Assembly (NCBI RefSeq): GCF_947568905.1
Contig: NC_079172.1
Coordinates: 22,878,001-22,942,000, forward strand
Source of the DNA: Ostrea edulis
Taxonomy: Eukaryota
Direction of reading: 5' to 3'
DNA: 64,000 bases
Below the pieces are notes generated by a model that was not told where the DNA came from, did not search any database, and was given only the letters and a program-made list of their open reading frames with translations. This document shows positions 8,437 to 46,606 of this stretch, in pieces (within the stretch, counting starts at the first letter, position 1; the number at the start of each line of letters is the position of its first letter). The position numbers were made by a program, and so were the translations under genes.

Positions 8437-8988
8437 CGAGTTATCATATATTTACACATATGAAATACGGTTTCCCTTATTGTGGCAAAACCCGACACCC
8501 CGGGGGCCATGATTTGAACAAACTTGAATTTGAACTATGTCAGGAAACTTCGATGTAAATTTGAACTCTTCTGGCTCAATGGTTCTTGAGAAGATTTTTC
8601 CTATATAAATACATATAAAATGTGGTTTCCCCTAGTGTGGCCCCACCCGACCCCCAGGGGCAATGATATGAACAAACTGGAATCTGCATTATGTCAGGAA
8701 GCTTCCATGTAAAGTTGAACTCTTCTGGCTCAATGGTTCTTGAGAAAAATTTTCCTATATACACACATATAAAATATGGTTTCCCCATGTGTGGCCCCAC
8801 CCGACCCCCAGGGGCCATGATATGAACTGGAATCTGCATTATGTAAGGAAGCTTCCATGTAAAGTTGAACTCTTCTGGCTTAATGGTTCTTGAGAAGATT
8901 TTAAAAGATTTTTCCTATATATAAATACATATAAAATATGGTTTCCCCTATTGTGGCGCCATCCGACCCCTGGGGGACATGATATGAA
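8406..8988 (-). mobile_element. Non-autonomous Helentron-type element with oyster approx. 166-bp (Cg170/HindIII-like) satellite array, 3' part (left of the Polinton)
   Basis: End aacaagaggcccatgggccacatcgctcacc, then about 3.5 tandem approx. 160-bp units (tggttcttgagaagattttt...gatatgaacaaactggaatc) resembling the known oyster satellite family (recognised from memory). Confidence 0.75.
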
Positions 8989-9333
8989 AGTAGTATAACG
9001 CGTCCCGATAGGGAGTTCAACTGAGTGCACTTTTTATGCAAATGAGGTCAAGTAAGGGCGTTTTTGATTGGTCAAGCGGTGTTGGGGTCAACGGAGTGCA
9101 CTAGGACGGGGTCAACCCCAGCAGGGGTTGTAGAGCGGGTGAATAGACTGGGCTATGGCCGCTGGTCTATGATGCGGTACTTTCGCTTTGAGTTCCTGGA
9201 ATGAGTTCCTGCTATTTTTCTGAAAATCCAGTGAAATCCTGTGTATTAAATCTAAAAGAATAACAGTGTATTAAATCTAAAAGAATAACACAAGGTTTTA
9301 AGTTGACATGTTTATTAAAGAACAATAGTACAA
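8989..9333 (+). repeat. Left terminal inverted repeat (345 bp)
   Basis: 8989-9146 is the exact reverse complement of 29226-29383; the inner part matches with patches of divergence; contains a 2 x 25-bp tandem at 9241-9290. Confidence 0.95.
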
Positions 9334-9432
9334 TCCCCAGAGGTGGCACGGTCCCTAGTTTTACCCAGCGCTGTCTACAGGTAATATATATATAAAGCGG
9401 CGCGCGGTGCATTGGGTGTCACTTTCGACATC

Positions 9433-12400
9433 ATGTCAGACAAGTTACCTACTGGACTTCCACGGAGTTATATTGAACAGCGATTGAGATTTTTGAATGA
9501 TCAGCTGAACAGACAACGGCAGCGTGAATTACAACTTCGCAGAGAGAATCAACGACGACTACAGTATTTACAGCGGGGAGGGGGGAAAAAGAAACTCATT
9601 TCGGATTATTACAAAATTCAACTGGAACGAGGACGTCAATCACGGAAATTTAAAGTCAAGGAAAATGTCTACAATGTTGCTTTCAAACCTATTCCAGAGA
9701 AAGAAAATACAACCTTCATTCGTCGGCTCTTCCGGGATATGTTAAAAAATGTGAAACAGGAAATGCAGTGCAATCCCAATGATTATCTACGTTTAAATAT
9801 TCGGCACCCGTCTCTGGATTCAGCTATTTGGTACGAATTTACGCAGTCCAATCAGCTCAACGAGGACAAAATTCTGAACAAAATAGAATCCGTCCAGCAA
9901 TCTAAAAAGGAATTCCTAATCACCGACGGGGCAGTGCAGATGGATTTTTTCCATGTTAAATATCCACAAGGCAGCGGGTGCACTAAGAAAAAACATCTAC
10001 ACATGGATAAGGAGAAATTCAAAAACTCCAAGAGAGCGATCGTTCGCATTCAAAATCCTGAGGATTCTCTCTGCTTGTCCCGGGCTATTGTGGTAGCACG
10101 TCTACACAGCCAGAAATCAAACGACCCGGCATGGGAAACGAAATGGTTACGCATGAGAAAAGGGGATTTCAAAACGCTCGACCAGAAACGAGAAGCGATA
10201 GCCTTGATGGAACAAGCTGGGTGTGTTATGAACCACCCGTGTGGGCCGCGTGAATGGGAGCAATTACAGCACGCGCTCGCCCCACAGTATCGATTGAAAA
10301 TATTTCAATTCAAAACGAATACAACTCGTTTACGACTGGAACCTATTTACAAAGGACCGGGGTACGGGACTTGTTTGAATATCCTGCTGGATAACGAGCA
10401 TTACGATGCCATTGTGTCTATGGCTGGAGTGACGGAAAACGGATACTATTGCGATTATTGCGATGTTGGTTACAGTCACATTGAAGATCATCGGACCGTC
10501 TGTCCTCATCGATGCTCATTTTGTTTAGCCGATACCCCCTGTACCCCGGACGGGACTCAGACGAATTGCCCTCATTGTAAGGGATTTTTCAGAAATGCAG
10601 CTTGTTACCAGACCCACTTGAAACCTTACAGCAGTAATACAACAACCACGGTCTGCAGTTTAATGGGGCGGTGTAACCAGTGTCAGAAATGGATGTCCAA
10701 GCAATTATTAAAACGCCACGCGTGTGGGGGTCAAACCGAATGCCGCATCTGTCACAAAGTCGTCACCATGCCTCATCACTGCTTTGTACAGACGAAACCC
10801 AAACCTAAGAAAGAAAAAGAAGAAGAAGAGGAGTTGAAAATATACATTTATTACGATTTCGAATGCAGTCAGGAAAACGGTATTCACATCCCCAATTTAT
10901 GCGTGGCAGAACGTGTGTGTCAACATTGCGACAGTGTGGATATCGACAAGCCCTGTTCTCATTGTGAAGGATTCGGATCACAACGCCGCTTCCTATTTCA
11001 AGGCCCCGACACGTTAAAACAGTTTATGGAATGGCTCTTACAGAGCGAGACCGATGAGCAAGGCCATGTGGAACTCAAACACGATGAAGCCACCATCATT
11101 GCCCACAATTTCAAAGGATACGATGGGCAGTTTATTTTGAATTACCTGGTGCACACGGCGTGTATCAAACCCACCGTCATCCTGAACGGGAGTAAAATCT
11201 TATCCATGCAAGTCTTGGGGTTGAGATTCATCGATTCTTACAACTTTCTACCCTTTGCTCTTGCCAAGATGCCCTCTGCTTTCGGATTAACGGAATTGAA
11301 AAAAGGCTATTTCCCGCACTTTTTCAACACGACAGAGAACCAGCAGTATGTGGGTCCTTACCCGGCCGCTCATTTCTACAATCCTGACGATATGTCCACC
11401 GCCAATCGTGAAGCCTTCTATACTTGGTACCATCAACAAGAGGGCAAAGTCTTTGATTTCCAGAAAGAATTCTTAGCTTACTGCATCTCGGACGTGGATA
11501 TTTTACGCCGCTGTTGTGCCCATTTCAAATCCACCCTGTTTGATCTGGTGGAAGTAGACCCCTTTCAAGAATCCATCACGTTTGCCAGCACGGCTAATTT
11601 AGCCTACCGACGAGGATTCATGACACAGGACACCATCGCCATCATTCCTAATATGGGCTACCGGCCAGCACGACGATATTCAGCTAAAGCTTGCCGATGG
11701 CTCGCCTGGTTAGAACATCAACATCACTGCATACGACATGCTAGAAATGGGGGTGAAGTCACGCTTGGACCCTATACAGTAGATGGGTATGATGAGGAAT
11801 CCCGTATCGTGTACGAATTCTATGGCTGTTACTGGCACGGCTGTCCCACCTGTTACCCGAATCTGTTGACTGACATGCATCCTCATCGTGTTCAGCATAC
11901 GTATCAAGACCTCTACCTGGACACCTTAAAACGAGCCAGTGCTTTAGAAGACCAAGGCTATACAGTCGTGAGCATATGGGAACACGAGTTTGATCGTCAG
12001 ACCCAGACCAATGCCGACTTACAGGAATTTTTACAAGGAGTCGATATACAAGATCCTTTGAATCCCCGTGACGCTTTGTACGGAGGCCGGACCAATGCTA
12101 CACGACTGTATTGTGAGGAGGGTGACATGCGATACGTGGATGTCTGTTCCCTGTACCCGTACGTGTTGAAATACAAGCCATTTCCCGTCGACCATCCCCA
12201 AGTCATCACCAGCCATTTCACCGATGTCAGAGACTATTTCGGGCTCATTCGTTGTCGTGTCCTCCCACCCCGAGAGCTGTATCACCCCGTATTACCTTAC
12301 AAGACCGGGGGCAAATTACTCTTTCCCTTATGCCGCACCTGTGCGGAACAGCGCAACTTAGGACCCGACGAGCGGTGCCAGCACACCGATTCTGAACGCA

Positions 12401-20521: not shown

Positions 20522-21925
20522 ATGATGCACCGAGAATCTTGCGCTTGTGGCACCAGCAGTTTAGAACTGTTTAAAGTGCCCCCGACCAACGTCACTTTAG
20601 AAGATTCGAAATGGATGGAATATTACCCCATTTCCAGTACCCTCAACTCGGATACGGCTCCGATTGAATTTGAAATCAAAGGACAAGGAGATGAATATCT
20701 GGATTTATCCCAAACTTATCTCCAGATGGTATGTAAATTCACGAAAGCCAATGGAACGAATCTCGCAGGAGGCAATTCGACCTCCACCCCCGTGAATAAC
20801 ATTCTCCATTCCTTGTTCAGTGAAATCGATGTCAGTCTCAATGGAAAAGTCATTACCCCGGGGACGGATACTTATCCCTACAAAGCGTATCTGGAGAAAT
20901 TGTTGTCTTATGCACCCAAGACTCTGGAAACCCAGATGAGAGCCTGTAGCTTGTGGGAAAAAGATACGGCAGGACATATGGATGAGGTCAAATTAGAAGC
21001 TCTGGCTCAAACTCCTGTGGAATTTGCAGTAGTGTCTAACAAAGTCAACATCGCGGCCGTCATCCCGACTCCCGAGTATCCGGATGATTCCAAGAATGTA
21101 GGGTTGAGAAAACGTCACGAGAAGATTACAGACAGTAAGGAGATCGTGTTGATGGATCGATTACATCTGGATTTGTTTGAGCAAGAGAAATGTCTCCCTA
21201 ATGGCTTGGATGTCCGTCTCCGATTCAATCGCGCTCGACCCCAGTTCTACATGATGACCGCTGCCGGGAGTAGTGGGAAAGTGGCCATTCAAAGTATGAT
21301 CTTGTGGGTGAGGAAAGTCAAACCTGTGCCGAGTATCATTAATCTCATCAATCAGCAACTGAGTACTCAAACGGCGAAATATCCATTGAGACGAGTGGAA
21401 GTGAAAACCTTCACCATTCCTAGTGGCACCCAATCTAAAATCACCGATCATCTGTTTCAAGGACAGATGCCTAAACTGATCGTGTTGGGCTTTGTGGACA
21501 ATGCGGCTTTTAATGGGGATAATACCAGAAACCCCTTTCATTTCCAAAATGAGAGAGTCAAGAAATTAGAAATCAGTATCAATGGAGAAATGATGGAAAC
21601 CCGACCTTTGGAACCTAATTTCACCGACGATCAGTACCTGAGATCGTATTTGAGTCTGTACAAAGGCTTGGGAAAATTAGGTCAGGACTGGGCTCCGGAC
21701 ATTACCCTAGAAGAGTATAAAAACGGTTACACCCTCTGGTGTGTGGATTTCACGAAAGATCAAGAAGCCCAGACGGATAAATTTCATCTCATACAGACGG
21801 GGAACTTGAGAGTGGAAGTGCAATTTGCCGCCAACGTAGCCAGGACCTTAAACTGTGTGGTGTATGCCGTGTTCGACAATCTGCTAGAAATCAACAAACA
21901 ACGAGAAGTCAGCATCGATTACTAA
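20522..21925 (+). CDS. Major capsid protein (double jelly-roll, hexon-like)
   Basis: [10 protein letters not shown]...EYYP...[21 protein letters not shown] and [12 protein letters not shown] motifs of the Polinton MCP; 467 aa. Confidence 0.93.
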
Positions 21926-21932
21926 GAGAGAG

Positions 21933-22430
21933 ATGGATACTCAGCAATTGAGAGATGTTTTACAACGAGATTTAGGACCGGCGTTTGCCGGTGTGTATCC
22001 TCGAGATGTCATACCTGAGCTGTTACCTCATCACAAAGCCATCGTGGTGAATACAGACCCTCACGATCGCCCTGGAGCGCATTGGGTCTGTTTGTATTTG
22101 AGTAGCCCTACCGTCGAATATTTTGATTCTTACGGATTACCCCCCAGCCATAAAGACATCCAAGACTTTATTCAACGCCACGGAGAGACTTGGATTCATA
22201 ACACCCATTGTTATCAAGATTTGAATACGGATGTCTGTGGACAATACTGTGTGTATTTTTTACATCAACGCCATCGCCATAGAAGCACCGTACGAGAATG
22301 GTTACTTCCCTGGAAAGGCACGGCCTTACAACGCGATCGTTTTGTGGCGGATTGGTTTAAAGAGACCTTCCGAAAACCGAGAACCCATCAAGGACAAACT
22401 TGTCAATGTCAAAGACTGAATGTATTGTAA
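21933..22430 (+). CDS. Maturation cysteine protease (adenain/Ulp1-like)
   Basis: VNTD...GAHW, EYFDSYG, YQDLNTDVCGQYC give H, D, Q and C catalytic residues. Confidence 0.94.
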   Translation: MDTQQLRDVLQRDLGPAFAGVYPRDVIPELLPHHKAIVVNTDPHDRPGAHWVCLYLSSPTVEYFDSYGLPPSHKDIQDFIQRHGETWIHNTHCYQDLNTDVCGQYCVYFLHQRHRHRSTVREWLLPWKGTALQRDRFVADWFKETFRKPRTHQGQTCQCQRLNVL

Positions 22431-22515
22431 ACTATGTTATTGTTATTGTTTATAGTTGGAGTTTAATAAAACGTTGGAAAAAAAAAAAAAATTCTTGTCA
22501 TTGTAATCAACCATG

Positions 22516-22556
22516 TCTTTTCAAAAAGAATGGGTAGCCCTGAAAAGGGCTGTTTT
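22516..22556 (-). terminator. Histone-mRNA-type 3' stem-loop plus downstream element (copy 1)
   Basis: Minus strand AAAAC AGCCCTTTTCAGGGCT ACCCA TTCTTTTT GAAAAGA; stem-loop 22536-22551, downstream of ORF 22644-22940. Confidence 0.8.
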
Positions 22557-22643
22557 CTTTCTCTCTCTCTGTTCTTGGTCTTTTCTCTTCTTCTTCTCTC
22601 TTCTCCTTCTTCTCCTTCTCTTCTTCTTTTCTTCTCGGTCCCC

Positions 22644-22940
22644 TCACTGTCTGTTCTTCTTCTTCTTTCTTCTCTTCTTTTTCTGCTCCTCCGGGGGTTG
22701 CTCGTGGTCAAACACAAACACAGGCAACCACCCGTGTTTAAAAAACAATCTCCCCGGAGGCCGTTGCACCACTTCTAACTCTGCGTCCCAGTTTTCTTCT
22801 GGCGGGGGCAGATCCTGGCTCATGGGCGGTGGGGGAAGAGCCTCCCGTGAGGCCGGCGGGGTAATCTCTGCCTCCCAATCCTCCTCCCATTTGATACAAT
22901 AATCATTCACTGTAGGGTCTGGTCCTACTCTACGGCTCAT
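22644..22940 (-). CDS. Hypothetical 98-aa protein: acidic/Pro-rich with basic NLS-like tail
   Basis: EEDWEAEI and EENWDAEL repeats, LPPPP, KKKRRKKKK; has a dedicated upstream promoter and 3' stem-loop. Confidence 0.6.
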   Translation of the reverse strand: MSRRVGPDPTVNDYCIKWEEDWEAEITPPASREALPPPPMSQDLPPPEENWDAELEVVQRPPGRLFFKHGWLPVFVFDHEQPPEEQKKKRRKKKKNRQ

Positions 22941-22984
22941 GGTTCTGGTTCCTTTAAAAAATCGGAATGCCCGATTTTTGACGT

Positions 22985-23033
22985 TGCGCTCGGTTTAAAA
23001 AGGCGAGAGCGCGGACGTCCTCGAAAACATCCC
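22985..23033 (-). promoter_or_regulatory. Duplicated H4/HiNF-P-like promoter element, copy 1
   Basis: Minus strand GGGATGTTTTCGAGGACGTCCGCGCT...TTTAAACCGAGCGCA; 25/26 identical to 25044-25069. Confidence 0.65.
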
Positions 23034-23047
23034 CTACCTCAGATGGC

Positions 23048-23089
23048 TGACGTCATGTTGATGACTCATCAAAAAACACTATATAAATA
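23048..23089 (+). promoter_or_regulatory. CRE + AP-1 + TATA promoter
   Basis: TGACGTCA 23048-23055, TGACTCA 23062-23068, TATATAAATA 23080-23089, ATG at 23117. Confidence 0.7.
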
Positions 23090-23116
23090 GGTCACTTGTT
23101 ACCATTTTTCTCAATC

Positions 23117-23518
23117 ATGTCGTTTGAACGGTACGCGGATGATGAAAATGATGTACTAGTGTGTGGGTATTGCCGAGGACCTTGGAGCACTTGTGGGTGT
23201 TTTCATTATAAAAAAGAAAACATCCTGGCCAAACAGAAGTGGATAGAGAGATTGGCAGAGCTGACGTTTTATCCCTTTGTCTATAAATGTTGTGGTCACA
23301 CTAGAGAACCCTGGCTAGAGTGTAAGTGTCCGCAGCATTGTACCATCACCCCTGAAGAAGAAATAGCGCATAAGGACTGTACCTGTGAGATCTGTCAGGA
23401 GTTTAGAGAGCGCTGGACTCAGAGAAAGTTTGATCCCCGGGTGTTTCAACATTGTCCTTACAGTCAAGAACCCCGGTCAACGTGTACCTGTGAGACCTGT
23501 CAACCAGCATGTCGGTGA
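23117..23518 (+). CDS. Cys-rich putative zinc-binding protein (133 aa)
   Basis: Three copies of C-x-[YH]-x-[RQ]-[GE]-P-[WR]-x-x-C-x-C plus two CTCExC motifs. Confidence 0.7.
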   Translation: MSFERYADDENDVLVCGYCRGPWSTCGCFHYKKENILAKQKWIERLAELTFYPFVYKCCGHTREPWLECKCPQHCTITPEEEIAHKDCTCEICQEFRERWTQRKFDPRVFQHCPYSQEPRSTCTCETCQPACR

Positions 23519-24006
23519 CGGATCTACGAGGAGATGTATTATCTCTACCTTGGGTGGATGCTATTGTACAACAATGTAACTGTTTAACGGTGAAACCTCA
23601 TGGATTAAGTCAACGTATTGCCGAACGATTTCCTTGGGCTAATCTGTATGCGACCCGACAACCTTTAGGACGGAGAAATTTAGCTATAGCAGCGGATCGA
23701 GGAATACCGGGTACTGTGTGTATTATGCCTCATTCTACTCATCCTGATGTGATCTGTTTGTTAGCGCAATGGGATTACGGGAGAGGCACTCAACGCTTAC
23801 CCCTGTATGCCGATACCCCCGAACAACGTGAACTTTGGTTTCAACAATGTTTACAGGAATTAGGCACTTTGTCTTACCAGACTTTAGCGTTTCCTTATCG
23901 TATTGGATGTGGATTAGCCGGAGGCAATTGGACTCATTATAGACAATGGATTTGTGACTTTGCTTATCAGTATCATAAACATGTGTACATTGTCAAGAAA
24001 ATGTAA
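23509..24006 (+). CDS. Macrodomain (ADP-ribose binding/hydrolase; Poa1p/TARG1/DarG-like class)
   Basis: GDVL...AIVQQCNC...GLSQRIAERFP...PGTV...LLAQWDYG...LAFPYRIGCGLAGGNW. Confidence 0.9.
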   Translation: MSVTDLRGDVLSLPWVDAIVQQCNCLTVKPHGLSQRIAERFPWANLYATRQPLGRRNLAIAADRGIPGTVCIMPHSTHPDVICLLAQWDYGRGTQRLPLYADTPEQRELWFQQCLQELGTLSYQTLAFPYRIGCGLAGGNWTHYRQWICDFAYQYHKHVYIVKKM

Positions 24007-24098
24007 CTTTATTATAGCTTTATTCTAGCTATTACTTGTGTTAATAAAACTTTTTTAAAACAAACTTGTGTGTTTCTTGATTTTTGCCATAAAAAGTG

Positions 24099-24139
24099 TC
24101 TTTTCAAAAAAGTTGGTGGCCCTGAAAAGGGCCGTTTGG
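24099..24139 (-). terminator. Histone-mRNA-type 3' stem-loop plus downstream element (copy 2, perfect consensus)
   Basis: Minus strand CCAAAC GGCCCTTTTCAGGGCC ACCAA CTTTTTT GAAAAGA; stem-loop 24118-24133, 23 nt after the TGA of ORF 24157-24948. Confidence 0.9.
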
Positions 24140-24156
24140 TCCTAAGGACCGACTTT

Positions 24157-24948
24157 TCATTCCCTGCTTCCGGTAAACCGGCATAACGGGCACCGTCCCC
24201 GGGTGTGTCGCCGCTCCTGTAACTCTTCCACGCACGAGCAGCAAGCTGGGCGCTGCCCACATCCCCTGCACGTAATTCCAGAGTGTACCCTGTCTTGCCA
24301 GCAGACAGGACACTTAAACCAGATGGGAACCGCCCTATCTGCCCAGCCAGGGACAGTCATAGGGTGGTTCCTCGGGGGATGAGTTGCCACCGGTGCGTGG
24401 GTTGGTCTCGGTGGTGGTGGAGTCCTCCCTGCAAACCGGATGGTAGGTGGTGGGGGTCTTGCAGGGGCTGCTGGTCTCGGTGGTGATGCTGTGTCTGCCA
24501 CCAACAGCGACGGACTCTGGGCTGGACTGGGAGGTGGTGCGGGGGACGGTGACCGCGGTGAATACTCCACCGGTGACGCTGGTGAGTCGCTCATCGGCAC
24601 CGGGCTGTATTCCACTGGTGCCGATGGGATCGCTGGTGGTGGTGTTGTAGGCGTCGCCGGTGAGTAAGGTGGTGGTGGTGAGGGTGGCTGTGGGGCCCGT
24701 CGGCGCGGTCTCGTACCCGTGGAGATTCGAGCGGTGCGGCGGCGGGGTGCCCTCCCTTCATACTCGGCCCGCACCCGGCAGATGATCTCACGGACCCCAC
24801 TCTGGTCGAAAGGGGAGAAGGTGCTCAGGTCGTTCTCAGAACGCACGACCCAATTCTCCCCTACCCGTTCCTCAGCCACCACTACCAGCCGGTACCGGAA
24901 TCCAGGCAAGGTCTGAAAATTGTAGAGCGGGTCTCTTCTTGTAGCCAT
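24157..24948 (-). CDS. Pro/Ser-rich protein with C-terminal RING-like finger (263 aa)
   Basis: CPVC-x10-CRGCGQRPACCSC-x13-CPLC; PPPPY; YSPATPT, YSPVPMS, YSPRSPS; first ATG 24948. Confidence 0.8.
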   Translation of the reverse strand: MATRRDPLYNFQTLPGFRYRLVVVAEERVGENWVVRSENDLSTFSPFDQSGVREIICRVRAEYEGRAPRRRTARISTGTRPRRRAPQPPSPPPPYSPATPTTPPPAIPSAPVEYSPVPMSDSPASPVEYSPRSPSPAPPPSPAQSPSLLVADTASPPRPAAPARPPPPTIRFAGRTPPPPRPTHAPVATHPPRNHPMTVPGWADRAVPIWFKCPVCWQDRVHSGITCRGCGQRPACCSCVEELQERRHTRGRCPLCRFTGSRE

Positions 24949-25022
24949 TCTTCTTTCTTCTTTAAAATCCTTCAAAAATCTTCTATAACTGTGCTGGGTC
25001 ACCAGTGAAGCGAACTGGCGAG

Positions 25023-25069
25023 TGCGCCGGTATATATCGGGAAAGCGCGGACCTCCTCGAAAACATCCC
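25023..25069 (-). promoter_or_regulatory. Duplicated H4/HiNF-P-like promoter element, copy 2
   Basis: Minus strand GGGATGTTTTCGAGGAGGTCCGCGCTTTCCCGATATATACCGGCGCA, with TCACT Inr-like motif 29 nt after the TATA. Confidence 0.7.
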
Positions 25070-25503
25070 TCGCTTCGGAGACGAAGCCAAGATGGTGGCC
25101 GTCAAAATGGCGGATTTGTGCTTTCGAGTAGAGAGATTTTTCTCATTGTCTTTTTCTAGACATTCGATATCTGTGCAAGGTAGATTTAATCTGATAGATT
25201 CTGAGACGGCGAATGCGTTAAACTTATTTTTATTTTGCTACGTCGCATAGTTTTCAAAGAAACAGAGGTTAAAGAGGTCGAGTCGAGGTTCAATGTTTCT
25301 TCACCCCTCTTTAAAAATTTATTTCTCGACCATGTACATCCCTAACAACATCTCATAAGGTCTATTCGATAGAAAACACCTTATTTGATTCGATTTTCAC
25401 TCTACCTTTAGGATTTTCTGGATTCCTCAACAAATAAACCCTTCTCTGAGAGACTCAACCAAACACAGCTTTCGTGTAAACAATTTTATTCATGTCACAT
25501 ATT

Positions 25504-25722
25504 TCAAATACATAACTCCCACACACAACACCAATTCACATGTCTTTTTAAAATAGGGTCCAACATTTTTTCCATTTCTCGAATCCTGCGTTGAAATCGA
25601 TATCGATCAGCGGCTACAGTCATCCAGATACTTGTCCGGTCTTCTTCGGGTAACAGATGCACTTCATTTTGATCCAGATTAAAAGTCACACGTTTAACTT
25701 GACGTACATCTCTCGAAGACAT
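25504..25722 (-). CDS. PPP1R15/GADD34-like (ICP34.5/DP71L-type) PP1-recruiting protein, 72 aa
   Basis: KRVTF (RVxF) then EVHLL...W...AADRYRFQRRIREMEKMLDPIL, matching the GADD34/DP71L W...ARDRxRFxRRI...L signature; ATG 25722. Confidence 0.88.
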   Translation of the reverse strand: MSSRDVRQVKRVTFNLDQNEVHLLPEEDRTSIWMTVAADRYRFQRRIREMEKMLDPILKRHVNWCCVWELCI

Positions 25723-25991
25723 CGTAGTCTGATTTTCTCGATTTCTGCTCTGTCTGTGAGTCGAATTCGTTTCAATTCCTGGCCCATTAAATGAATCAGT
25801 ACTAAGGCTTGCGGGGTGATCCGGTTCTCGATCAAATACTGACAGAGACATGGATAGTCCTTTAAGCTGATGGGAAATAATTCTTCTCGCATATAGTGTA
25901 ACACAAATTCAAACTGCCCAGAATGAATGTCTGTGAGATAATCCAATACATAAACTATCGCTTTCTCTGTGATGTGGTCACTGCTGGCCAT
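25686..25991 (-). CDS. Helical paralogue 4 of tandem array (101 aa)
   Basis: MASSD start and FPISLKDY...LVLIHLMGQELK...IEKI...CLREMY, shared with its neighbours. Confidence 0.8.
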   Translation of the reverse strand: MASSDHITEKAIVYVLDYLTDIHSGQFEFVLHYMREELFPISLKDYPCLCQYLIENRITPQALVLIHLMGQELKRIRLTDRAEIEKIRLRCLREMYVKLNV

Positions 25992-26325
25992 CCTCCGGGA
26001 ATAAATGAAATGAATTAAGTTCTTCACACTTTATGTATACTTCTCGAAGCCAGTCCTTGGTGATACTTTCAATCTCGGCGGTTTTTTCAGGCATGCGTTT
26101 CTTGAATTCCTCCCCCGCGACATAAATTAACATCAACCCCGCATCGTTATAGAGATTGATGTACACATGGTTCCGTAGATCTGTATATTCGTCCAGAGTC
26201 ATTGGAAACACCCCCGCTATCAGATAATTTTTAACAGCTTGAAACACCGTATCGTCTTGCATTTTCTCCACCCATTCTAATGCATGGTTATGCGCTTTTT
26301 CTGCGATGTTGTCACTGCTGGCCAT
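25978..26325 (-). CDS. Helical paralogue 3 of tandem array (115 aa)
   Basis: MASSD...FPMTLDEY...GLMLIYVAGEEFKKRMPE...IESI...WLREVY. Confidence 0.8.
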   Translation of the reverse strand: MASSDNIAEKAHNHALEWVEKMQDDTVFQAVKNYLIAGVFPMTLDEYTDLRNHVYINLYNDAGLMLIYVAGEEFKKRMPEKTAEIESITKDWLREVYIKCEELNSFHLFPEDGQQ

Positions 26326-26353
26326 CCTCCAGGAATAAAGGAAAAGAAAACGG

Positions 26354-26707
26354 TTAGGTTTTTTTATACACCTTTTCCAGCCAGTGATCGGTAATCGCTA
26401 CAATCGCCCCAGTCTTCTCAGGTTCCCGTCGTCTAAATTCTTGGTCCATGTTATAAATCATGATCAATCCAGACTCTCTGTTCAGGTTGTCGGCTATATG
26501 CTTGCAAACGCTGGAATATTCATATAAGGTCATAGGAAATTCCCAAAAGATCAACAACTTCATGGCGAATTTATATCTCAACGGCTGTTTTTCTTTCCAG
26601 TCCTTGATACACTGTAATGCAGCGCTACGAGCGTTGTTCACCGATTCTTTGTAGTCCTCGAAATGCTGTAATACAGCGGTAAGAACGTTGTTGGTCAATT
26701 CAGCCAT
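26354..26707 (-). CDS. Helical paralogue 2 of tandem array (117 aa)
   Basis: FPMTLYEY...IADNL...GLIMIY...EFRRREPE...WLEKVY; first ATG 26707. Confidence 0.8.
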   Translation of the reverse strand: MAELTNNVLTAVLQHFEDYKESVNNARSAALQCIKDWKEKQPLRYKFAMKLLIFWEFPMTLYEYSSVCKHIADNLNRESGLIMIYNMDQEFRRREPEKTGAIVAITDHWLEKVYKKT

Positions 26708-26744
26708 GATGATCAAAATGAAAAAATTCTAAAACGTTCTTGTT

Positions 26745-27077
26745 TTATAACAGGGCAGCCATTCCTTTCATACGAATCAGTTCCACGAATCCTTTTTGTA
26801 GACAATCGCGTAAGATCCGATCAATGTCACTCATCTGGTCTGGAAGATTCTGTTTCAATTCCTCAGCATACAAATAAATCATGAGTAAACGTCCCGTATT
26901 GGTATTCTCCGCTAATGAATCAGCAATCCGTTGAAAACTATGTACATTTCTGACCTCCGGTGACATCTGTTGTACAAATTGACGAGCATTTTGAATGTGA
27001 GGATTATGTAAGGCCACGTTCATACATTGTAGTACATAACTATATCCATTTATTCTCGTAGTAGCACTGCCCCCCAT
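26745..27077 (-). CDS. Helical paralogue 1 of tandem array (110 aa), possible Bcl-2-fold protein
   Basis: SFQRIADSLAENTNTGRLLMIYLYAEEL resembles BH1 (FxxVxxELFxDGxNWGRIVxxxxF); TATAAATA on the minus strand at 27107-27114. Confidence 0.65.
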   Translation of the reverse strand: MGGSATTRINGYSYVLQCMNVALHNPHIQNARQFVQQMSPEVRNVHSFQRIADSLAENTNTGRLLMIYLYAEELKQNLPDQMSDIDRILRDCLQKGFVELIRMKGMAALL

Positions 27078-27128
27078 AGTAAATAACGAACGTTCAGAAA
27101 ACACCTGTATTTATAGGTAAAGGTTATG

Positions 27129-27181
27129 CATCACGTGATCAAACACCTGCACCACGTGATCAAGCACCTGTACGTCAGCTG
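27129..27181. promoter_or_regulatory. E-box cluster (2 x 21-bp direct repeat) in a divergent promoter
   Basis: catcacgtgatcaaacacctg 27129-27149, caccacgtgatcaagcacctg 27150-27170, then TACGTCAGCTG. Confidence 0.6.
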
Positions 27182-27216
27182 GTTTTTCTACAGTCATTCT
27201 TGTCTGACCTTCAGTC

Positions 27217-27723
27217 ATGGATACACGGAGAATTTTAAGAGCGAGACGCCGCGGCCAGGGAATACAACCAGTGGAGAATTTAACCATAGTAGAAGATTAT
27301 GTAGACGAGATGGAGATCTGGGCCAATTTAGTACAGAGATGTCGCCATCGATTACGCTGGGGCCGATCTAAAAATTGGTGTTTTGACTATGTATTGCGGT
27401 CACATGAAACAGTGGAGGATATTTACCTGCGTTTAAGTGACATGTACCTGAAAAATTCCCCCCTCATACAGTACATGATTTACCAGTTTTACACGTTATT
27501 GAACGGCACTCAAAAAGTATCGGGATTTATTCGACTGGAGAAACCACGTTACCGGAGAAGTGTATGGGTATTGTTTTGGGATGCACACTGGATGTGGGAA
27601 ACCGTCGAAGAGATACGTTTCCCCGGGAGAAGAGCTCGACAATTAGTACAACACATTATATCCGAAGATCATGACTTACACGTGTATATAGAAGAACCTG
27701 CGTATGAAGCCGGCCATTTTTAA
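27217..27723 (+). CDS. Hypothetical 168-aa protein resembling a catalytically dead CRESS-virus HUH Rep endonuclease domain
   Basis: SKNWCFDY (motif I-like), YMIYQ...GTQKVSGFIRL (motif II-like, no His), DAHW; no motif III Tyr. Confidence 0.55.
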   Translation: MDTRRILRARRRGQGIQPVENLTIVEDYVDEMEIWANLVQRCRHRLRWGRSKNWCFDYVLRSHETVEDIYLRLSDMYLKNSPLIQYMIYQFYTLLNGTQKVSGFIRLEKPRYRRSVWVLFWDAHWMWETVEEIRFPGRRARQLVQHIISEDHDLHVYIEEPAYEAGHF

Positions 27724-27742
27724 AAATAAAAACTTCATGCAC

Positions 27743-27758
27743 AGCCCTTTTTAGGGCT
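27743..27758 (+). terminator. Variant histone-type stem-loop (copy 3)
   Basis: AC AGCCCTTTTTAGGGCT AC, 19 nt after the stop of ORF 27217-27723; no clear purine-rich downstream element. Confidence 0.55.
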
Positions 27759-27811
27759 ACTTTAAACACCAATATAAGTTCCATTCCACTAAAGTCAATG
27801 TGTACCAATGG

Positions 27812-27883
27812 GCACTAGCACGCGCTGGTCGCGAGAAACCGGCTTTTCAAGTTCAATTAGTGCACTAGCACGCGCTGGTCGCG
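27812..27883 (+). promoter_or_regulatory. 22-bp direct repeat (50-bp period) upstream of the zinc-knuckle gene
   Basis: gcactagcacgcgctggtcgcg at 27812-27833 and 27862-27883, each followed by gaaaccgg(c/t)ttttc. Confidence 0.6.
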
Positions 27884-28043
27884 CGATGTTCTAGCTGAAA
27901 CCGGTTTTTCCAGAAAAAGATGATGCAACCACGTGCTCCCCACGTGCCCCTCACGAGACAGAATAGTCTAGACATTTTGCTGGCTATAAAAGCGGAGCCC
28001 CAGTGTCAGTCCTCATTCGATCTTCAATCACCTTCCAGAAGAC

Positions 28044-28961
28044 ATGGCTCAGAAACAACTAGAATTTGTGGACAAAGCTCAGAAGAAAATAGATCAGCTG
28101 GTACAGAAGGAGATGGGGCCACAAAAAGACTACATTGAACTGAAGAAAGCTAAGAGTGACGATCAGAAGACTGAACTGGGGAAGACCTCGAACTTCTTGC
28201 TCACGTCTCCAGACTACGTTGCTCAAAGAAGAAGAGAAGAGAAGAAGATGGCCCAGACCTCGAACCAGACCACGAGCTTCAATCTCACGCCTTCAGACCA
28301 CGTTGCTCGACAAGTGAAGATGGCCCAGACCTCGGATTACCTCCCTAGCCAGAATCCGACAGACCCGGGATTAGGCTTCTATTTTCCCGATTCACAGGAC
28401 GCTACGGGACTGGAGATGGGCTTATACGATAAACCCCCCTTCGGCGGAGAAGATTCCCCCATGAGCAGGACCGATTTCGCCATCATTACCACGACACTCG
28501 ACGGGATCGTTAACCGCATTAATGTGCTGAGTAATGAGATTGGAAATCATACCACAATCCTACTGAAGAAGCTGGAAGACCTGACTTCTAAAAAACCTAG
28601 GAAGGAATACACTCCAGATTACACTGCTAACCCGTGCTACACGTGTGGAGAAACAGGACATTGGTCGCCGGATTGCCCACAGAAAACAGATTATCCGCAG
28701 ACCAGTAAGAAATCGTGGTCGGCAGATTCTCAACAGACCAGCAAGAAAACCAAACAAAAGGATCCTTGCTTCAAATGCGGAAAAATAGGACACTGGATTA
28801 GTGAGTGTCCAGAAGAACAAGCGGAGATAGATGCGATGATTGGACCCGTACCTGGCTCAAAACCCCCTGTGAAGAGAGAATACACACCGTTAGAGATGTG
28901 GAATCCACCCGCACCTACTGAAGAACGGCCAAAAAAGAAGAAGAAACTCAGCAGAAAGTAA
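28044..28961 (+). CDS. Coiled-coil plus double CCHC zinc-knuckle protein with C-terminal NLS (305 aa)
   Basis: CYTCGETGHWSPDC and CFKCGKIGHWISEC; RPKKKKKLSRK; TATA 27985, Inr 28013, AATAAA 29052. Confidence 0.85.
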   Translation: MAQKQLEFVDKAQKKIDQLVQKEMGPQKDYIELKKAKSDDQKTELGKTSNFLLTSPDYVAQRRREEKKMAQTSNQTTSFNLTPSDHVARQVKMAQTSDYLPSQNPTDPGLGFYFPDSQDATGLEMGLYDKPPFGGEDSPMSRTDFAIITTTLDGIVNRINVLSNEIGNHTTILLKKLEDLTSKKPRKEYTPDYTANPCYTCGETGHWSPDCPQKTDYPQTSKKSWSADSQQTSKKTKQKDPCFKCGKIGHWISECPEEQAEIDAMIGPVPGSKPPVKREYTPLEMWNPPAPTEERPKKKKKLSRK

Positions 28962-29034
28962 TGGACTGTGCTTGAACTGTTATGCTTATTGAACTGTTTT
29001 TATGCTTATTGAATTGTTTTGCATTGTTCTATGC

Positions 29035-29383
29035 TTGTACCATTGTTCTTTAATAAACATGTCAACTTAAAACCTTGTGTTATTCTTTTAGATTTAATAC
29101 ACTGTTATTCTTTTAGATTTAATACACAGGATTTCACTGGATTTTATACCGATTTTCAGAAAAATAGCTTTTCCAGGAACTCAAAGCGAAAGTACCGCAT
29201 GCTAAAATTAGGACCATAGGCCAGCCTATTCACCCGCTCTACAACCCCTGCTGGGGTTGACCCCGTCCTAGTGCACTCCGTTGACCCCAACACCGCTTGA
29301 CCAATCAAAAACGCCCTTACTTGACCTCATTTGCATAAAAAGTGCACTCAGTTGAACTCCCTATCGGGACGCGTTATACTACT
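29035..29383 (-). repeat. Right terminal inverted repeat (349 bp)
   Basis: Reverse complement of 8989-9333. Confidence 0.95.
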
Positions 29384-29810
29384 TATGAACAAACTTGAAT
29401 CTCCATTATGTCAGCAAACTTCCACGTAAATTTCAACTATACTGGTACAGTGGTTCATGAGATTTTATTAAATGACCCCACCCTATTTTTACACTTTTGT
29501 GATTATCTCCCATTTGAAGAGAACCTGGCCCTTAATTTGAACAATTTTGAATTCCCTTCAACTAAGGATGATTTGCATTAAGTTTGAATGAAATTGGCTT
29601 ACTGGTTCTGGAGAAGATTTTTAAAAATTTTCAGTGTATTTTTACCGATTTGCTATTATCTCCCCTTGGATAAGAGGGTTGGCCCTCATTTGAACAATTT
29701 TGAATCCCCTTCACCCAAGGATGATTTGTGCCAACATTGGTTAAAATTGGCCCTATGGTTTTGGAGAAGTTGAAAATGTAAATGTTTAACAGACAGACGA
29801 CGGACAAAAA

Positions 29811-30975: not shown

Positions 30976-32665
30976 TTACAGAATGATACATTTTGCACCC
31001 ATGCTAGTGTGAGCAGATGTATTCAGACTGTCATTTAATGACAAGGTGGATTTCTCTTTTCCTTTGCTTTTCAGTTTTTTGATTTTACTCTCCTTTTTGC
31101 TCTTTCCTTTCGGAACAATGTCTTTGTTCACCATGTCTGGCCGGACCCTTCCTGGAGTACTTTTTCTTTCTGCTAATTTACCACTATGCTGCACAGGAGA
31201 GCTCAATTCAGGGGGGACAACTTGGACTGTTTTGTGAGAAACTTTGTCCACATTTTCCTGAGTGACAGTTTCCACTTTGGTCTCTTCATTTCCAGAATCT
31301 CCATTAGGTAGAGTAAGCTTGACCAGCTTCACCTGAGGCATCTCATCTGCTGTTGTCATAGTTTTAGATGACTTTATCCCTTTAGGGGTCTTCATGGGAG
31401 TTTTGAATTCCATGGAATCATCAAGAGAAATATTTTCAACTGCCACATCACCAGTTCCCTTCATTTTGGCTGGAGTTTTCCTGTAGGCTTGTCTGGATTT
31501 TCTGGTGGACGTTTCGGACACTGCCTGGGTCACTTTGACCTTCTTTACTTGTGGGGTCTCAGAGGTGAGGTCCATCCTCCGCTTCACGCCTGTAAAACTC
31601 AGACTGTCATCCTCTTTGTTCTCGTTTACTTCAGGTGAAAATGTCACATTTGTTTCCTCAGAAGCAGATTTTGTTAACTTCACCTCCGTTTTAGTGTTAG
31701 CTTCTAACTGTTCCATCTCTATCTTCTTTGTACTTCTTTTGCTTTTAGCTGATGACCTTAGTCTTCTGGAAGCAGACTGGACTGGTGTTGTCTTCTTTGT
31801 ACTAGCTGTATCCTTCGGTGTACTGGGCTTGACATCATTCATTGACTTTGAAACTCGAACTGGAGTCTTCCTGGAACTACGCTGTGATCTTTTTGCAGAT
31901 TCTGGTTGTGCATCCTCTGATGTACTGGACACTGGGCGGGCAGGGGTTTTCCTGGAACTACGCTGTGATCTTTTTGCAGATTCTGGCTGTGAATCCTCTG
32001 ATGTGCTGGACACTGGACGGGCAGGGGTTTTAAAAACACCTTCTACTGGTTCTGGCATGCTCTTTCCTTTGGCTGATTCAGCAGTAGAGCGTCTCGGGGT
32101 CTTTATTGTTTTTTTGGCTGGTGAAGGTGAAGCTACTTTTTCAGATCTTTTGGCAATAGGTTGGACTGATTTTCTCCTAGTGACGGATCCTTCACTAGAC
32201 TGGGAGGATGGCACTTCTAAATTTGTTATCTGCTTGGAAGTTCTAACTGGAGATTTTGGACAAACTGACCTACGGGCAGCTGGCGCCTTTCGTTGAACTG
32301 CACTCTCTTTTTTTTCACTGACCCTTGTAACTCTCTTGGCTTGACCAGTTTTAGAAGCCTTTAGGGGCTGGGAACAAGCTTCCTGGAGAGTTTGACCTTT
32401 CTGGTACACCGATGACCTTCTGGTACGTGTCTTCACACCAGGAGGTGAGAGCACCTTGGCTGGACCTTTCTTCGGCTTTTCCTGTGGAGTAACAGCTATA
32501 GTTAGCCTTATTCCTCCTTTCCTACTATTGACATTGAATATGGATGACCGTCGGGATCGAGTGCCTATTGGGGAGGACCTCACAGGCTCTGGGAGTTTGA
32601 ACATGGTGTGTCTTCTGAAGTTGGTGGCTTTCTGGGATATTGTTCCCGTTGGCATAACTGATTTC
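30976..32665 (-). CDS. Large exon of an unidentified Lys/Ser/Thr-rich disordered protein (3' structure uncertain)
   Basis: Acceptor tgtag at 32666, phase-compatible with the upstream exon; long open frame with a 27-aa tandem KTPARPVSSTSED[SA]QPESAKRSQRSSR x2. Confidence 0.7.
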
Positions 32666-34985
32666 CTACAATAAGCAATGAATATCGGTAAAACTCTACA
32701 TCCCCCAGAAATTCCAAACTTCTCCAGCATCATTCTGATTATTAGATGTTACATGAAATTTCCAATGGTTCTTGCAAAGCAGGGCCTGAAACTAACTTTT
32801 TATGTCACCAGTCCAGTCAGACTGATAGGGTATAATTTCAACCAGTCTGCAGAAAAATCTACCCTTTTCAAGAAATAATTAAACAATATTTCGTTAATGT
32901 TATTGAAAAAAAAAAAAGGAATTTAACTCGAAATATCTCAGAAAATATTGTATTACACATGTGACATATATATTTAGTAATCGGGTTCTTATATCTACAG
33001 AGAATGCCAAATGTGTGTTCAAGATTTGACAAGTGGGTTTTCCAAAATAATGTGTTACAAAATTGACTAGTCCCATCAGACTGACTAAAACAAATGTCAA
33101 TCAGTCTGTCAGACTTTTAACCAGTCACAGACTGATGGGCAAATGTTAGTTTCAAGCCCTACAAAGGTTATATTCAAACAATATTCTACAAACAATATGT
33201 GCTTGTGAAAATAATGAAACATTAACACTCCCACAGCAACACCAGTTATCTGTAGAATGGAGGTCAAAGTACACATTTCCAAATAATTTTCAATGTTGCT
33301 ACCATCCTACAATCTAAAATGAACTCCTGGTTAACTTAAGAGTAAGGAGTACCAATATATCAATTGATAAAAAGTGCTATTTAACTGTCCAGTAAACATG
33401 GTTAAATCTGATGTAGCCAGGGCACCTAATACAAGACAAAGTTTGATTAGATACAATGATTTAAAATGGGATTGATGTACATAAATGTAACTGTAATAAT
33501 GGTTGTATATAAAAATGTAAGATTATGACTCCTAAGAAAAGCAATATATTATAATGGCAAGGTCAAAACCTTAGGTACCAAATGAAAAGTCTTGTCATGA
33601 GGAATGCACATATGAAAATATCAGTCAAGGGTCATGTTATTTTCAAAAATAACTCAAATGAGGATTTTTTTTGGGGGTCATGATGAGTTACTTCTCTTTG
33701 CTCTCAACTGCTCCTGTCCTTCACCAATATTAGTCTTTCCTTCATTAATAACTGATTTACTCAAACAGGTTATCCTTAGTTATTTTGTTTACATTATTTA
33801 GTCAATCCCCCTCACTTCACACCACATATTTTCACTGGTGGAATAAGACAAAAACAAATGGTGGTTTTTTTAAAGCTTGCTTAATCCAGGAAAATTATTC
33901 AAAGTCTTCAGAAAAGTGTGAAAAATTGTTCCATTGTTGATAAAATTCCACCTCAAAATGTAAATTAACACCCCAAAGAGCAAGTAGTAATTTAAATTTT
34001 TGGGTGGAATGGGCTACAGTCTTTTGATGCAAATGTTTATTGGAGTCTGTATATCTTTTTTGTTCTTACATCTGGAATCCCAGAATGCAATATACATTGC
34101 CAGGAAATACAAAAGATCAAAGATTTCAGATGAAATCAATGACACTGTAAGATAGAACAATAACGATTAAATGTTATTTTTGAAATATATATGTGTGTGT
34201 TTCAAATAACTTATGTGTGTTATTTTTTAAATAACATGACTGTCTGTTATGCCTCTGATTGATCACTCACGATTCCAAAGTTATAAGCAAGGATAAAAGT
34301 TTCTGACAGACAGGACAACAATTATATATGCCCTCCAATCTTTAATACAGGTGCATAAAAATAAAGTAAAATCATTGTTGATTTTACCAATGGAAAATTC
34401 TAATAAGTGAAATCTATTCCAGTATAAATATTGTGTTGCATCTGGAAAAAATTGTTCAATACACAGCTCTATATTGCTTGTTCATCTATACACAGCTTAC
34501 CTTTCTTTCCCAACATTTATAACAGGAGAATGTTCTTGCTCAAAAACCATCTGCCTCCCCGACACCCAGCCTGGAGTTATCGGGCTGTAAAACTTTGCAG
34601 GGGACAACCTGTTATAAAATGGGGATATAGATATATATTATCATAAAATTCAGATTTTAATACCCAATACCAACGTTTTTCTGATATTAGCTCGCTCACT
34701 TGAGTGTTTGAAAAGTGTGTAGCCTTGAATCTCAGAGGTAAAATGAACATTCTAAGCTTAATTGCTATAATAATTACTGTAATACATGTAGATGTTGAAG
34801 AATTTACCCATATTGTATTAAAATATCAATATGGGATTGCCTGAACCCCTATATCCCTAACATTGTCATGTTGTTCTGGAGAAGGTCAATGTCACAAAGC
34901 CAAACATTATAGTATGAAATGAAATCTTGTCGTATTAATCTAAATACAAAATATGAAACCCTGATAAACAATTTCTACAACTTAC

Positions 34986-45344: not shown

Positions 45345-46606
45345 GTAAGTCATTACGACAAATTTACTCAGTCATATTTTCAGTACAAAATTATTGATCA
45401 TTGACAAGAATTAAAAAGTTATTTTTATTTGTTGTTGTAATTCATTATCTATTGTGTGAAATTTGAAAATTATTTTCGTAGTTTAGAGGTATTTTGTATA
45501 TGAATTGTTGAAGAGAAGAGTGGGAGTAGATGTTTAAGAATAATGATCATATTCATTCTTGTTATTTGTAGTAAACAAAAAGAAACTGGAAAGGAGGGTA
45601 AGTGGAAAATAACGATAATTCCATGGTGATTATGATAATTTTAAAGATGTAAATTAGTGCTGTCTATGAATAGTTGATATAAATGAATACCTATCATTTT
45701 GTCCAAATGAGCTTGAATGTAAGTTTTTATTGTCAGTCAGACTATGAAAGAGGCCAGTCTTCATTTTACACTAATCTTGGTTGAGATTCAGCTTGGCTGA
45801 ATATTTAGACTGACGCCTTCACTGAATCTCAGAGCAGTTCTTCATAATTCATGTCTGGAAATTTACTTCCAGTTTCGGCTGGTTCTAGCTATTAATGTGC
45901 ACTTAGATTGCACTGCTGTTTGCTTCAGATATTAAGTGGTTTGACTATTAAACTAACTATCACTATTAATCTTGCATTGCTTACCGTGTAAGTATGAAAA
46001 TTCCAAAATGAAAACTGTCCCTAAATTTTCCGTTCAGATGAAGACTTCCACCGCACAATATTTTGTATTCTGAAATTGAAAAGTTCCAATTGTCTGTTTT
46101 ATCAAATTACTGATACATTGTATTGATCTCCACATACCTACTCGTACATTGCTAATTTAAGAACAAACTATGGAAACTCTTCAGTTTCGGGAGATAAAGT
46201 ATTGTGCCATCCAAATATTCAGCCAGGCCGAATCTCAGCTGAGATTACATTTTACACAACTCTGGATTGGAAATACTTTCACTTAATTAAGCTATTTTAA
46301 ATTTGAATGTACCCATTACTTTCCAGTCTTTGCCAGTGGGAAATCCTATAATTGCTGCAGGTAAGACTATTTTAAACTTGAGATAAATTGAAAAATAAAA
46401 ACAGAAGAATTGCTTTTGGCATCATGTAAATTTTAATTGAAAATGGTCAAATTGCATGATAAATGGCACATTTACAGCTACAAGAAAAAAGCTGAGCATA
46501 AGGATTGAATCATCTCTGTTGCAGTTCTCCAAATTCCATTAATTAACACATATTAATGGATTTTATGTGGTGTTTCTTCTTCATTATCTGGGTGTGTTTT
46601 TTCCAG

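Follow-up and report, generated by a model that had tools for sequence, protein, structure and literature searches.

The stretch of DNA analyzed here, in the following called the window, comprises 64,000 nucleotides of the Ostrea edulis genome (contig NC_079172.1, positions 22,878,001 to 22,942,000) and contains an intact, capsid-encoding Polinton/adintovirus element of 20.4 kb. Within this element, the minus strand carries a 72-amino-acid (aa) open reading frame (ORF) at 25504..25722, extending from an ATG at 25722 to a TGA at 25506-25504, which represents the short form of a putative PPP1R15-like PP1 adaptor. The initial annotation had described this ORF as a minimal GADD34/ICP34.5-like eIF2-alpha phosphatase adaptor, and it was recovered with the sequence quoted there. 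As had been noted, it is nested in a longer ORF: the reading frame spans 134 codons from stop to stop, and an in-frame upstream ATG at 25851, conserved in position, opens a 115-aa long form (25504..25851, minus strand). The AATAAA reported just downstream on the minus strand is likewise present (25485..25490). The adaptor frame partly overprints a Bcl-2-like ORF, termed B4 (25686-25991): the first 55 codons of the long form, and with them the first 37 nt of the 72-aa ORF, are shared with B4 out of frame, and the B4 stop codon falls within the RVTF codons of the adaptor.

The functional core, K10 to L58 in the numbering of the 72-aa form (25549..25695, minus strand), was delimited by alignment to DP71L and PPP1R15B, by residue roles taken from the literature and by the modeled interface. 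It consists of KRVTF as the RVxF motif (25681-25695), the hydrophobic pair V21-H22, R29, W33, the DRxRF-xRRI segment (D39-I47), L54 and L58. Among 24,736 Pfam models the sole family identified was PF10488 (E=1.7e-5); the profile search suggested in the initial annotation gave a score of 25.1 bits, which stays just under the family cut-off of 26.1. The same profile was matched at E<=0.01 by 32 of 32 aligned relatives. In a search of 177,635 PDB sequences, DP71L of African swine fever virus (ASFV) was the best match (E=4.9e-5, residues 8-61), and only two further matches, both PPP1R15B chains (1.1e-4 and 1.4e-4), were below 1e-3; PPP1R15A followed at 0.27. The likeness of the ORF to the PPP1R15/DP71L core is thus, as judged from sequence, beyond chance.

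The residue register agrees with this assignment. In CReP, V641, F643, R658, W662, F672 and I676 have been described as working residues, as have V564-H565, R578, W582, F592, R595 and I596 in GADD34 (PMC10743859), and two leucines of the DP71L LSAVL motif matter for function (PMC5346070). The CReP residues correspond to V12, F14, R29, W33, F43 and I47 of the window protein, and V564-H565 and R595 of GADD34 to V21-H22 and R46. The spacing from F14 to I47 is identical to that of CReP, with R29 at F+15, W33 at R+4 and F43 at W+10. On the PP1-binding side, the RVxF motif (K10-R-V12-T-F14) is followed by the hydrophobic pair and the arginine-pocket residue R29; in the W...DRxRFxxRI helix, W33, F43 and I47 stand at 0, +10 and +14, together with R46, and L54 and L58 align with the leucine pair of LSAVL. 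W, R and F are invariant in all 32 aligned relatives, and invariance over this set is highest in the columns E-R-W-R-F together with D, R and I. Two tryptophans of the tail, W64 and W68, come close to the spacing of the actin helix of GADD34 (W616-R620) and CReP (F696-Q700), at W33+31 and +35; this tail differs between families. The PP1/eIF2-alpha-binding core that had been read from the sequence (RVxF, then W...DRxRFxRRI...L) was therefore borne out by Pfam, PDB and residue register.

The 56-aa core was modeled in complex with PP1-beta from an insect, used in place of host PP1, in three runs with three controls. The interface score ipSAE reached 0.94 in 3/3 runs, compared to 0.00 for the best control; at least 77% of the contacts agreed between runs, and pLDDT of the partner was at least 63. 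In benchmarks, 51 of 78 solved microbial pairs attained the ipSAE mark, against 2 of 108 mismatched ones; among eukaryotic pairs, the figures were 71 of 105 (solved) and 2 of 126 (unrelated). The modeled contacts extend from K10 to R29 and involve PP1 residues 70, 73, 77, 167-168, 241-242, 260 and 287-298, which we take to form the RVxF and arginine pockets. The modeling proposed in the initial annotation thus places the core in the canonical RVxF pocket, a result that speaks for likeness to known PP1 adaptors rather than for binding as such and covers the PP1 side of the complex only. Taken together, Pfam, PDB, residue register, the PP1 complex model and the purifying selection described below support the assignment to the PPP1R15/DP71L type.

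The adaptor gene is widespread in the oyster genome. All 150 scored candidates (out of 197) matched, corresponding to at least 150 places in the genome; seven of these matches are identical to the window copy and 136 lack an internal stop (hand count). From 20 chosen divergent matches plus further context loci, the gene was assigned to at least three divergent Polinton families. Family A comprises the subfamilies of the window element, and PolB, integrase and capsid of the other families are only 30-45% identical. Family B (L044/L063) occurs in 12 copies at 96-100%, family C includes L077/L097 and L076, and family D (L069/L099) is degraded. Ratios of nonsynonymous to synonymous substitution rates (dN/dS) were determined over 35 core codons outside the B4 overlap. 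They amounted to 0.15, 0.23 and 0.21 for the window copy against L035, L038 and L041 (Fisher p=1e-4, 6e-3 and 1.5e-3), to 0.05 for L076 against L077 (Fisher p=1e-6) and to 0.11 for L077 against L084; between distant families, they were 0.14-0.50 or saturated. Core differences cluster at third positions, and of the six frames, the sense frame alone is free of stops; the antisense frame sharing these third positions also shows a low ratio, but contains stops. The codon comparisons therefore indicate that the adaptor core is under purifying selection as a protein in several Polinton families.

Beyond this genome, a profile search identified 137 proteins of 32-119 aa among 497 candidates, many of them 59-85-aa ORFs with a methionine just before the motif and some of them fragments of host last exons. 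An unfiltered search returned 1,498 representatives at E<=0.001, a few of them with genomic context. In a metagenome scan, 7 loci were obtained from 53 candidates, and in three of them (L083-L085) the gene stands beside Polinton-type genes; contig L085, the only one long enough for the core genes, combines it with PolB, ATPase, integrase, capsid and protease. L086 showed no Polinton gene, and L087-L089 are weak 14-residue matches. No Polinton with the gene was found in the IMG/VR scans, in which 0 of 56 candidates of query A1 and 0 of 3 of a capsid query were confirmed; with query A2, 2 of 7 were confirmed, and these belong to other types of virus. One IMG/VR contig of 6.6 kb (L081, 1542-1754) carries a 70-aa PPP1R15-core ORF on a large-DNA-virus-type contig with an SMC/Rad50-like gene; it appears to be another minimal viral member and falls outside the Polinton clade in a 54-row tree, on a long branch. 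The clusters P0187, P0191 and P0193 hold relatives of 170-220 aa, and in P0187 and P0191 a low-complexity, Arg/Ser/Gly-rich N-terminus looks like a second overprinted frame. In families B to D the neighbor of the adaptor is a CARD-PC4 fusion (L063:437-1507, L069:5141-6097, L077:4044-4595, L084:1078-2226; by Pfam, and for L084 by resemblance), possibly a caspase or MAVS-type decoy. The adaptor thus keeps anti-defense neighbors even where the Bcl-2-like array is absent.

Which start codon is used bears on whether the protein is minimal. Conservation is lacking for the ATG at 25722: about 52 codons separate the motif from the nearest in-frame methionine before it in L031, L034, L037-L041 and L050, and relative P0002 has isoleucine in place of the start methionine of the 72-aa form. 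In contrast, the window and all 6 of the other intact B4 orthologs tested share an ATG placed exactly 54 codons ahead of the B4 end, from which the frame is open to the motif. By synonymous resampling of B4, this had a p of 0.03 in the window copy and L035 and of 0.0005-0.002 in L031, L034, L037, L038 and L040; the seven copies share ancestry and amount to about three independent cases. The paralogs B1-B3 of B4 have no comparable open frame with an ATG. A pyrimidine tract ending in AG precedes the upstream ATG by 15-16 nt in both subfamily types (by eye; it is also B4 coding sequence), and copies in herpesvirus-like regions, described below, begin near the same position. Against a main start at 25851 stands its weak context in the window copy. 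Because this ATG has T at -3 and the downstream ATG has A, both products may be made. Overall, the 115-aa form is probably the main product in the window family. The description as a minimal protein of about 70 aa therefore probably does not hold for this family but does for the sister families B and C, in which forms of 65-80 aa occur (L044, L077, L084). A ribosomal frameshift fusing B4 to the adaptor was also considered; no canonical slippery heptamer was seen by eye, and the sole in-frame B4-adaptor fusion (L058) looks like a damaged copy.

Two adaptor matches, L042 and L043, lie in gene-dense, intronless regions with an inhibitor-of-apoptosis (IAP) gene and no Polinton genes. Each carries an ORF of 106 aa; at the DNA level, the segment that holds it is 72-74% identical to window positions 25811-25455 and includes the 3' flank beyond the AATAAA as well as a B4 remnant in the alternative frame; the B4 frame is broken in L043. 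Matches to the herpes terminase family PF02499 exceed the cut-off at four places on C8, at distances of 23 kb (L043) and 98 kb (L042), and intronless PolB frames of 1119-1417 aa occur at three places nearby; overall, terminase and PolB lie within 23-106 kb. The copies keep RVxF, R and W, the core departs from DRxRF, and PF10488 is matched at E=0.03-0.06. Since B4 belongs to a Polinton paralog array and is broken in L043, the simplest reading of the direction is from the Polinton to a herpes-like virus, and such a transfer appears fairly well supported. Positive selection in these copies is not supported (pN/pS 1.6, p=0.55). Two parts of C8, at about 25.35-25.62 Mb and 52.26-52.40 Mb (L065-L067, L078-L080, L094), appear as large endogenous herpesvirus-like regions with four terminase and three intronless PolB matches, an IAP and many ORFs without a Pfam match. 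A block of about 16 kb occurs twice in L065-L067, and each region probably holds more than one genome copy. For one ORF of these regions, an Atlas search gave protease leads only, below 0.9, which were set aside.

In the window, the adaptor is the last gene in a row, directly behind four paralogous Bcl-2-like ORFs of 101-117 aa on the same strand: B1 (26745..27077, 110 aa), B2 (26354..26707, 117 aa), B3 (25978..26325, 115 aa) and B4 (25686..25991, 101 aa). B1 matched the Pfam Bcl-2 family below cut-off (E=0.0066); for its model (pLDDT 75.6), the top 43 VIA-align rows were Bcl-2-family chains (best Z 8.4, root-mean-square deviation 4.1, 102 residues aligned). Bcl-2 chains head both fold lists for B1, yet Z does not exceed 8.4 for a helical protein. 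Foldseek with the B1 model returned nothing at E<=0.001, a PDB sequence-profile search with B1-B4 nothing under E=0.09 and no Bcl-2 protein, and an Atlas search with B3 no usable match. B2 was assigned by tblastn and alignment to its paralogs, and B3 is 35-41% identical to B4 and B2 by tblastn. We therefore regard B1-B4 as Bcl-2-like with moderate confidence, B2-B4 through paralogy only. The number of paralogs varies between elements, with four in the window, three in L035/L036/L046, where B3 is missing, and one in L069/L072/L073; the array seems accordion-like, and a direct repeat, D14, marks the starts of B3 and B4.

A TATAAA occurs near 27114 (by eye), and no AATAAA or ATTAAA was found on the minus strand between 27054 and 25490, the AATAAA at 25490-25485 being the first after all five leftward genes. 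It is therefore plausible that B1-B4 and the adaptor form one five-gene leftward unit with one poly(A) signal. In the sole, small run recorded as RNA, one 153-nt contig of depth 3.6 (25474-25626) ends at 25474, 11 nt past the AATAAA; it fits the 3' end of the unit and, as a single contig among many near-identical copies, is no more than a hint. No GT-AG joint across the unit was found in contigs of four runs, three of which are probably DNA.

The initial annotation had placed the ORF within a Polinton, and element ends, terminal inverted repeats (TIRs), target duplication and core genes are all present. The element (8989..29383) begins with AGTAGT and ends with ACTACT at these positions, is bounded by TIRs at 8988-9333 and 29035-29384, whose arms are 95% and 99% complementary, and is flanked by the 6-bp target duplication TATGAA (8983-8988 and 29384-29389). 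On the plus strand it encodes a protein-primed DNA polymerase B (pPolB; 9433..13395, PF03175 E=1.8e-55), a BIR-RING IAP (13431..13958, PF00653 E=1.2e-15, PF13920 E=1.5e-11), an A32-type packaging ATPase (14000..14638, PF04665 E=5.4e-7), an integrase with chromodomain (16676..17761, PF00665 E=1.6e-11, PF00385 E=3.5e-8), a double jelly-roll major capsid protein of 467 aa (20522..21925) and an adenain-type maturation protease (C5; 21933..22430, PF00770 E=2.9e-4, just under cut-off). The capsid ORF has no Pfam capsid match and was assigned by predicted structure, a low-confidence model (pLDDT 48) that matches the capsid proteins of Sputnik, PBCV-1 and mavirus (best E=1.8e-11). The combination of pPolB with a retroviral-type integrase, long TIRs, AGT-repeat ends and a 6-bp duplication identifies a Polinton/adintovirus, and packaging ATPase, adenain protease and capsid agree with it. 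The insertion site is a tandem repeat of about 154 bp, units of which run on at both sides (8447-8988 and 29392-29769). Further ORFs of the element include a 165-aa ORF (23509-24006, plus strand) without a Pfam match and with weak PDB matches to the conserved hypothetical proteins 2fg1 and 2afc (E about 0.003), which we assume to be macrodomain-like, suggesting ADP-ribose counter-defense; a proline-rich 263-aa ORF (24157-24948, minus strand) with a RING-like cysteine cluster at its end and no Pfam match; and an ORF (28044-28961, plus strand) that combines two CCHC zinc knuckles with a basic C-terminus, adjoins the right TIR and has a copy, 59% identical, beside the family-C element L077. Outside the element, long repeat-rich host ORFs without a Pfam match lie at 43778-45397, 46777-48123 and 61060-62769 (plus strand) and at 30976-32733 (minus strand); the first carries Lys/Ser/Pro 10-aa repeats, presumably resembling those of sperm-specific basic proteins.

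We consider it likely, with good confidence, that the gene is a viral mimic of PPP1R15 (GADD34/CReP), that is, a PP1 adaptor that reverses the eIF2-alpha shut-off; the neighboring anti-apoptosis genes (Bcl-2-like, IAP) were counted in favor of this reading. Judging from the complex model, RVxF, the V-H pair and R29 would dock on PP1. By analogy with the family, the W33-I47 helix would, together with G-actin, present phospho-eIF2-alpha to PP1, and specificity for eIF2-alpha and a block of the integrated stress response (ISR) would be expected. PP1 would then remove the Ser51 phosphate, and translation would continue when PERK, GCN2, HRI or a PKR-like kinase fires. PKR-like kinases occur in oysters. 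PERK mRNA of oysters is elevated after poly(I:C) (PMC9680061). The adaptor would act during the replicative phase of the element and might also dampen ATF4/CHOP-type death signaling. It would be the last gene of a leftward anti-defense unit of four Bcl-2-like genes and the adaptor, complemented by the IAP, and in the window family it would most likely be translated into the 115-aa form; leaky scanning might yield the 72-aa form in addition.

The gene might instead be functionless cargo, derived from a passive, recent capture of the last exon of host PPP1R15. The host genome contains one clear PPP1R15 (C6:28294153-28296232), which most resembles a protein named from Saccostrea and has a long exon, an intron splitting the RVxF motif and a last exon that scores 40.9 bits on PF10488; since the intron lies inside RVxF, the last exon alone resembles the core, and the element protein is 42% identical over 53 aa to an oyster PPP1R15. 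However, element copies have no intron and a contiguous RVxF lysine, and each of the 11 copies compared with the host exon is saturated at synonymous sites (pS 0.93-1.07). In a 25-row tree, 10 Polinton-type rows stand on one side of a branch with support of 97/96, and grouping family A with host PPP1R15 was rejected (p-AU 0.015; 25 rows, 60 columns). A 54-row tree agrees, with 96/89 for 28 rows and two rows without a recognizable core left out; with about 60 columns, compositional or long-branch effects are possible in these trees. Together with dN/dS well under 1 between families, these results largely refute a passive capture, which we regard as extremely improbable. Instead, the trees indicate that the Polinton adaptor is an old capture whose donor they leave unnamed. 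L082, which we take to be a CNPV231-like ORF, groups with CReP-like cellular rows outside the Polinton clade, so that the Polinton adaptor and CNPV231 appear to be separate captures. A domesticated or mutualistic role, in which endogenous copies tune the host stress response or guard against superinfecting viruses rather than serving element replication, would fit the high copy number of at least 150 matches and the endogenous herpesvirus-like genomes in the same host genome. But at the examined loci, intact copies of the gene belong to elements in which virus genes lie close by, the occurrence of seven identical copies at different sites suggests a recent spread, and lower eIF2-alpha phosphorylation would help other viruses, not hinder them; such a role is very improbable.

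Alternatively, the protein could be a PP1 adaptor for another substrate or a PP1 sponge, redirecting PP1 to viral or signaling proteins and not to eIF2-alpha. In line with this, the PP1 side alone was modeled, no counterpart of the N-terminal extension of 43 residues is seen in the host-type protein, and the herpesvirus-like copies retain RVxF, R and W but leave DRxRF. DP71L also inhibits STING signaling (PMC11796124), and ICP34.5 and DP71L have been reported to act on TBK1/STING-type pathways. A generic PP1 ligand would, however, need RVxF only, and the most invariant columns make up the substrate- and actin-facing half and not the PP1-binding half alone. We therefore regard another substrate as rather unlikely. 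Several observations weigh against the PPP1R15 mimic itself. The window copy remains under the PF10488 cut-off, with 23 bits in genome-wide scoring, and is not among the approximately 109 of 150 genome matches that pass it (hand count). The C-terminal tail beyond L58 is not conserved across families. As solved look-alikes exist (9NB9, 4V0X), the score of the complex model may reflect memory, and PP1 was taken from a species other than the host. In the herpesvirus-region copies, the core shows no purifying selection (pN/pS 0.9-1.6, indistinguishable from 1), so the motif can be let go; selection on these copies appears relaxed or redirected. Finally, evidence for expression consists of the one short contig from one small RNA run.

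An ancient Polinton PPP1R15 lineage held across families has fairly good support. It is a conjecture that the overprinting on the terminal Bcl-2-like gene places translation of the adaptor under control of the same stress that it counteracts, through an out-of-frame overlapping upstream ORF as in ATF4 mRNA. A joint reading, which combines such a stress-gated anti-defense unit with the ancient lineage and a donation to a mollusc herpesvirus-like lineage, where the gene drifts to a new job, is decidedly unlikely as a whole, chiefly on account of the stress gating; if true, herpesviruses would have gained an ICP34.5-like gene along an independent path.

The status of animal Polintons, as live viruses or as transposons that merely carry capsid genes, is an open question. 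A selected gene that would cancel shut-off, standing beside Bcl-2-like and IAP genes, would be needed by a virus with a productive phase and not by a silent transposon, which suggests that Polintons still behave as real viruses. With this finding, PPP1R15 mimicry by viruses would extend beyond large DNA viruses (herpes-, asfar- and poxviruses) to integrating ones of 20 kb; the finding also suggests that eIF2-alpha kinases act as an antiviral barrier in oysters, and it documents what appears to be gene transfer from a Polinton to a herpesvirus-like genome. The protein type is textbook; its distribution over capsid-encoding Polintons of animals, the overprint on a Bcl-2-like gene and the probable passage to a herpesvirus-like genome bear on the question of active viruses. 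The initial annotation did not recall such a gene from Polintons, and we found no report of a GADD34/ICP34.5/DP71L/ISR-type gene in Polintons in the literature searched, most subscription journals lying outside the search. Term searches of further Polinton and virus preprints gave no mention of phosphatase, ICP34, PP1 or eIF2. A survey of 391 such proteins, with work on DP71L as ISR inhibitor (bioRxiv 10.1101/2025.02.28.640897), may contain unrecognized Polinton entries, and the many natural 60-80-aa variants offer a comparison set for that work.

As a carrier, the window element shares pPolB, integrase, ATPase, adenain and capsid with the adintoviruses/Polintons of Starrett et al. (2021; PMC8502044), who list Bcl2 and IAP homologs as accessory genes; the main text and part of the supplement of that study do not contain the terms phosphatase, eIF2, PP1, GADD34 or ICP34. 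With cellular PPP1R15 proteins (PPP1R15A/GADD34, PPP1R15B/CReP and oyster PPP1R15) the adaptor shares the C-terminal core and its contact residues, whereas their long acidic N-terminal region, which serves endoplasmic reticulum targeting and eIF2 recruitment, is absent from the window adaptor; oyster PPP1R15 further differs by the intron in RVxF and forms a separate clade. This class also has members in insect and marsupial viruses. In herpes simplex and African swine fever viruses, such proteins restart translation after the cell has halted it as a defense. Known viral members include ICP34.5, DP71L and CNPV231 (PMC5346070, PMC13712846). ICP34.5 of herpes simplex virus 1, likened here by class and not by alignment, and canarypox CNPV231 are viral PPP1R15 mimics, as the window adaptor probably is; CNPV231, which lowers PKR- and GCN2-driven eIF2-alpha phosphorylation in yeast, differs in being closest to vertebrate CReP (PMC13712846). 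ASFV DP71L (short form, 71 aa; PDB 9NB9) has the same RVxF, linker, W...DRxRFxRRI segment and two downstream leucines and little beyond this core. It belongs to an asfarvirus of 170-190 kb, whereas the putative window adaptor resides in a 20-kb integrating Polinton and likely has an N-terminal extension of 43 residues, which overprints a Bcl-2-like gene.
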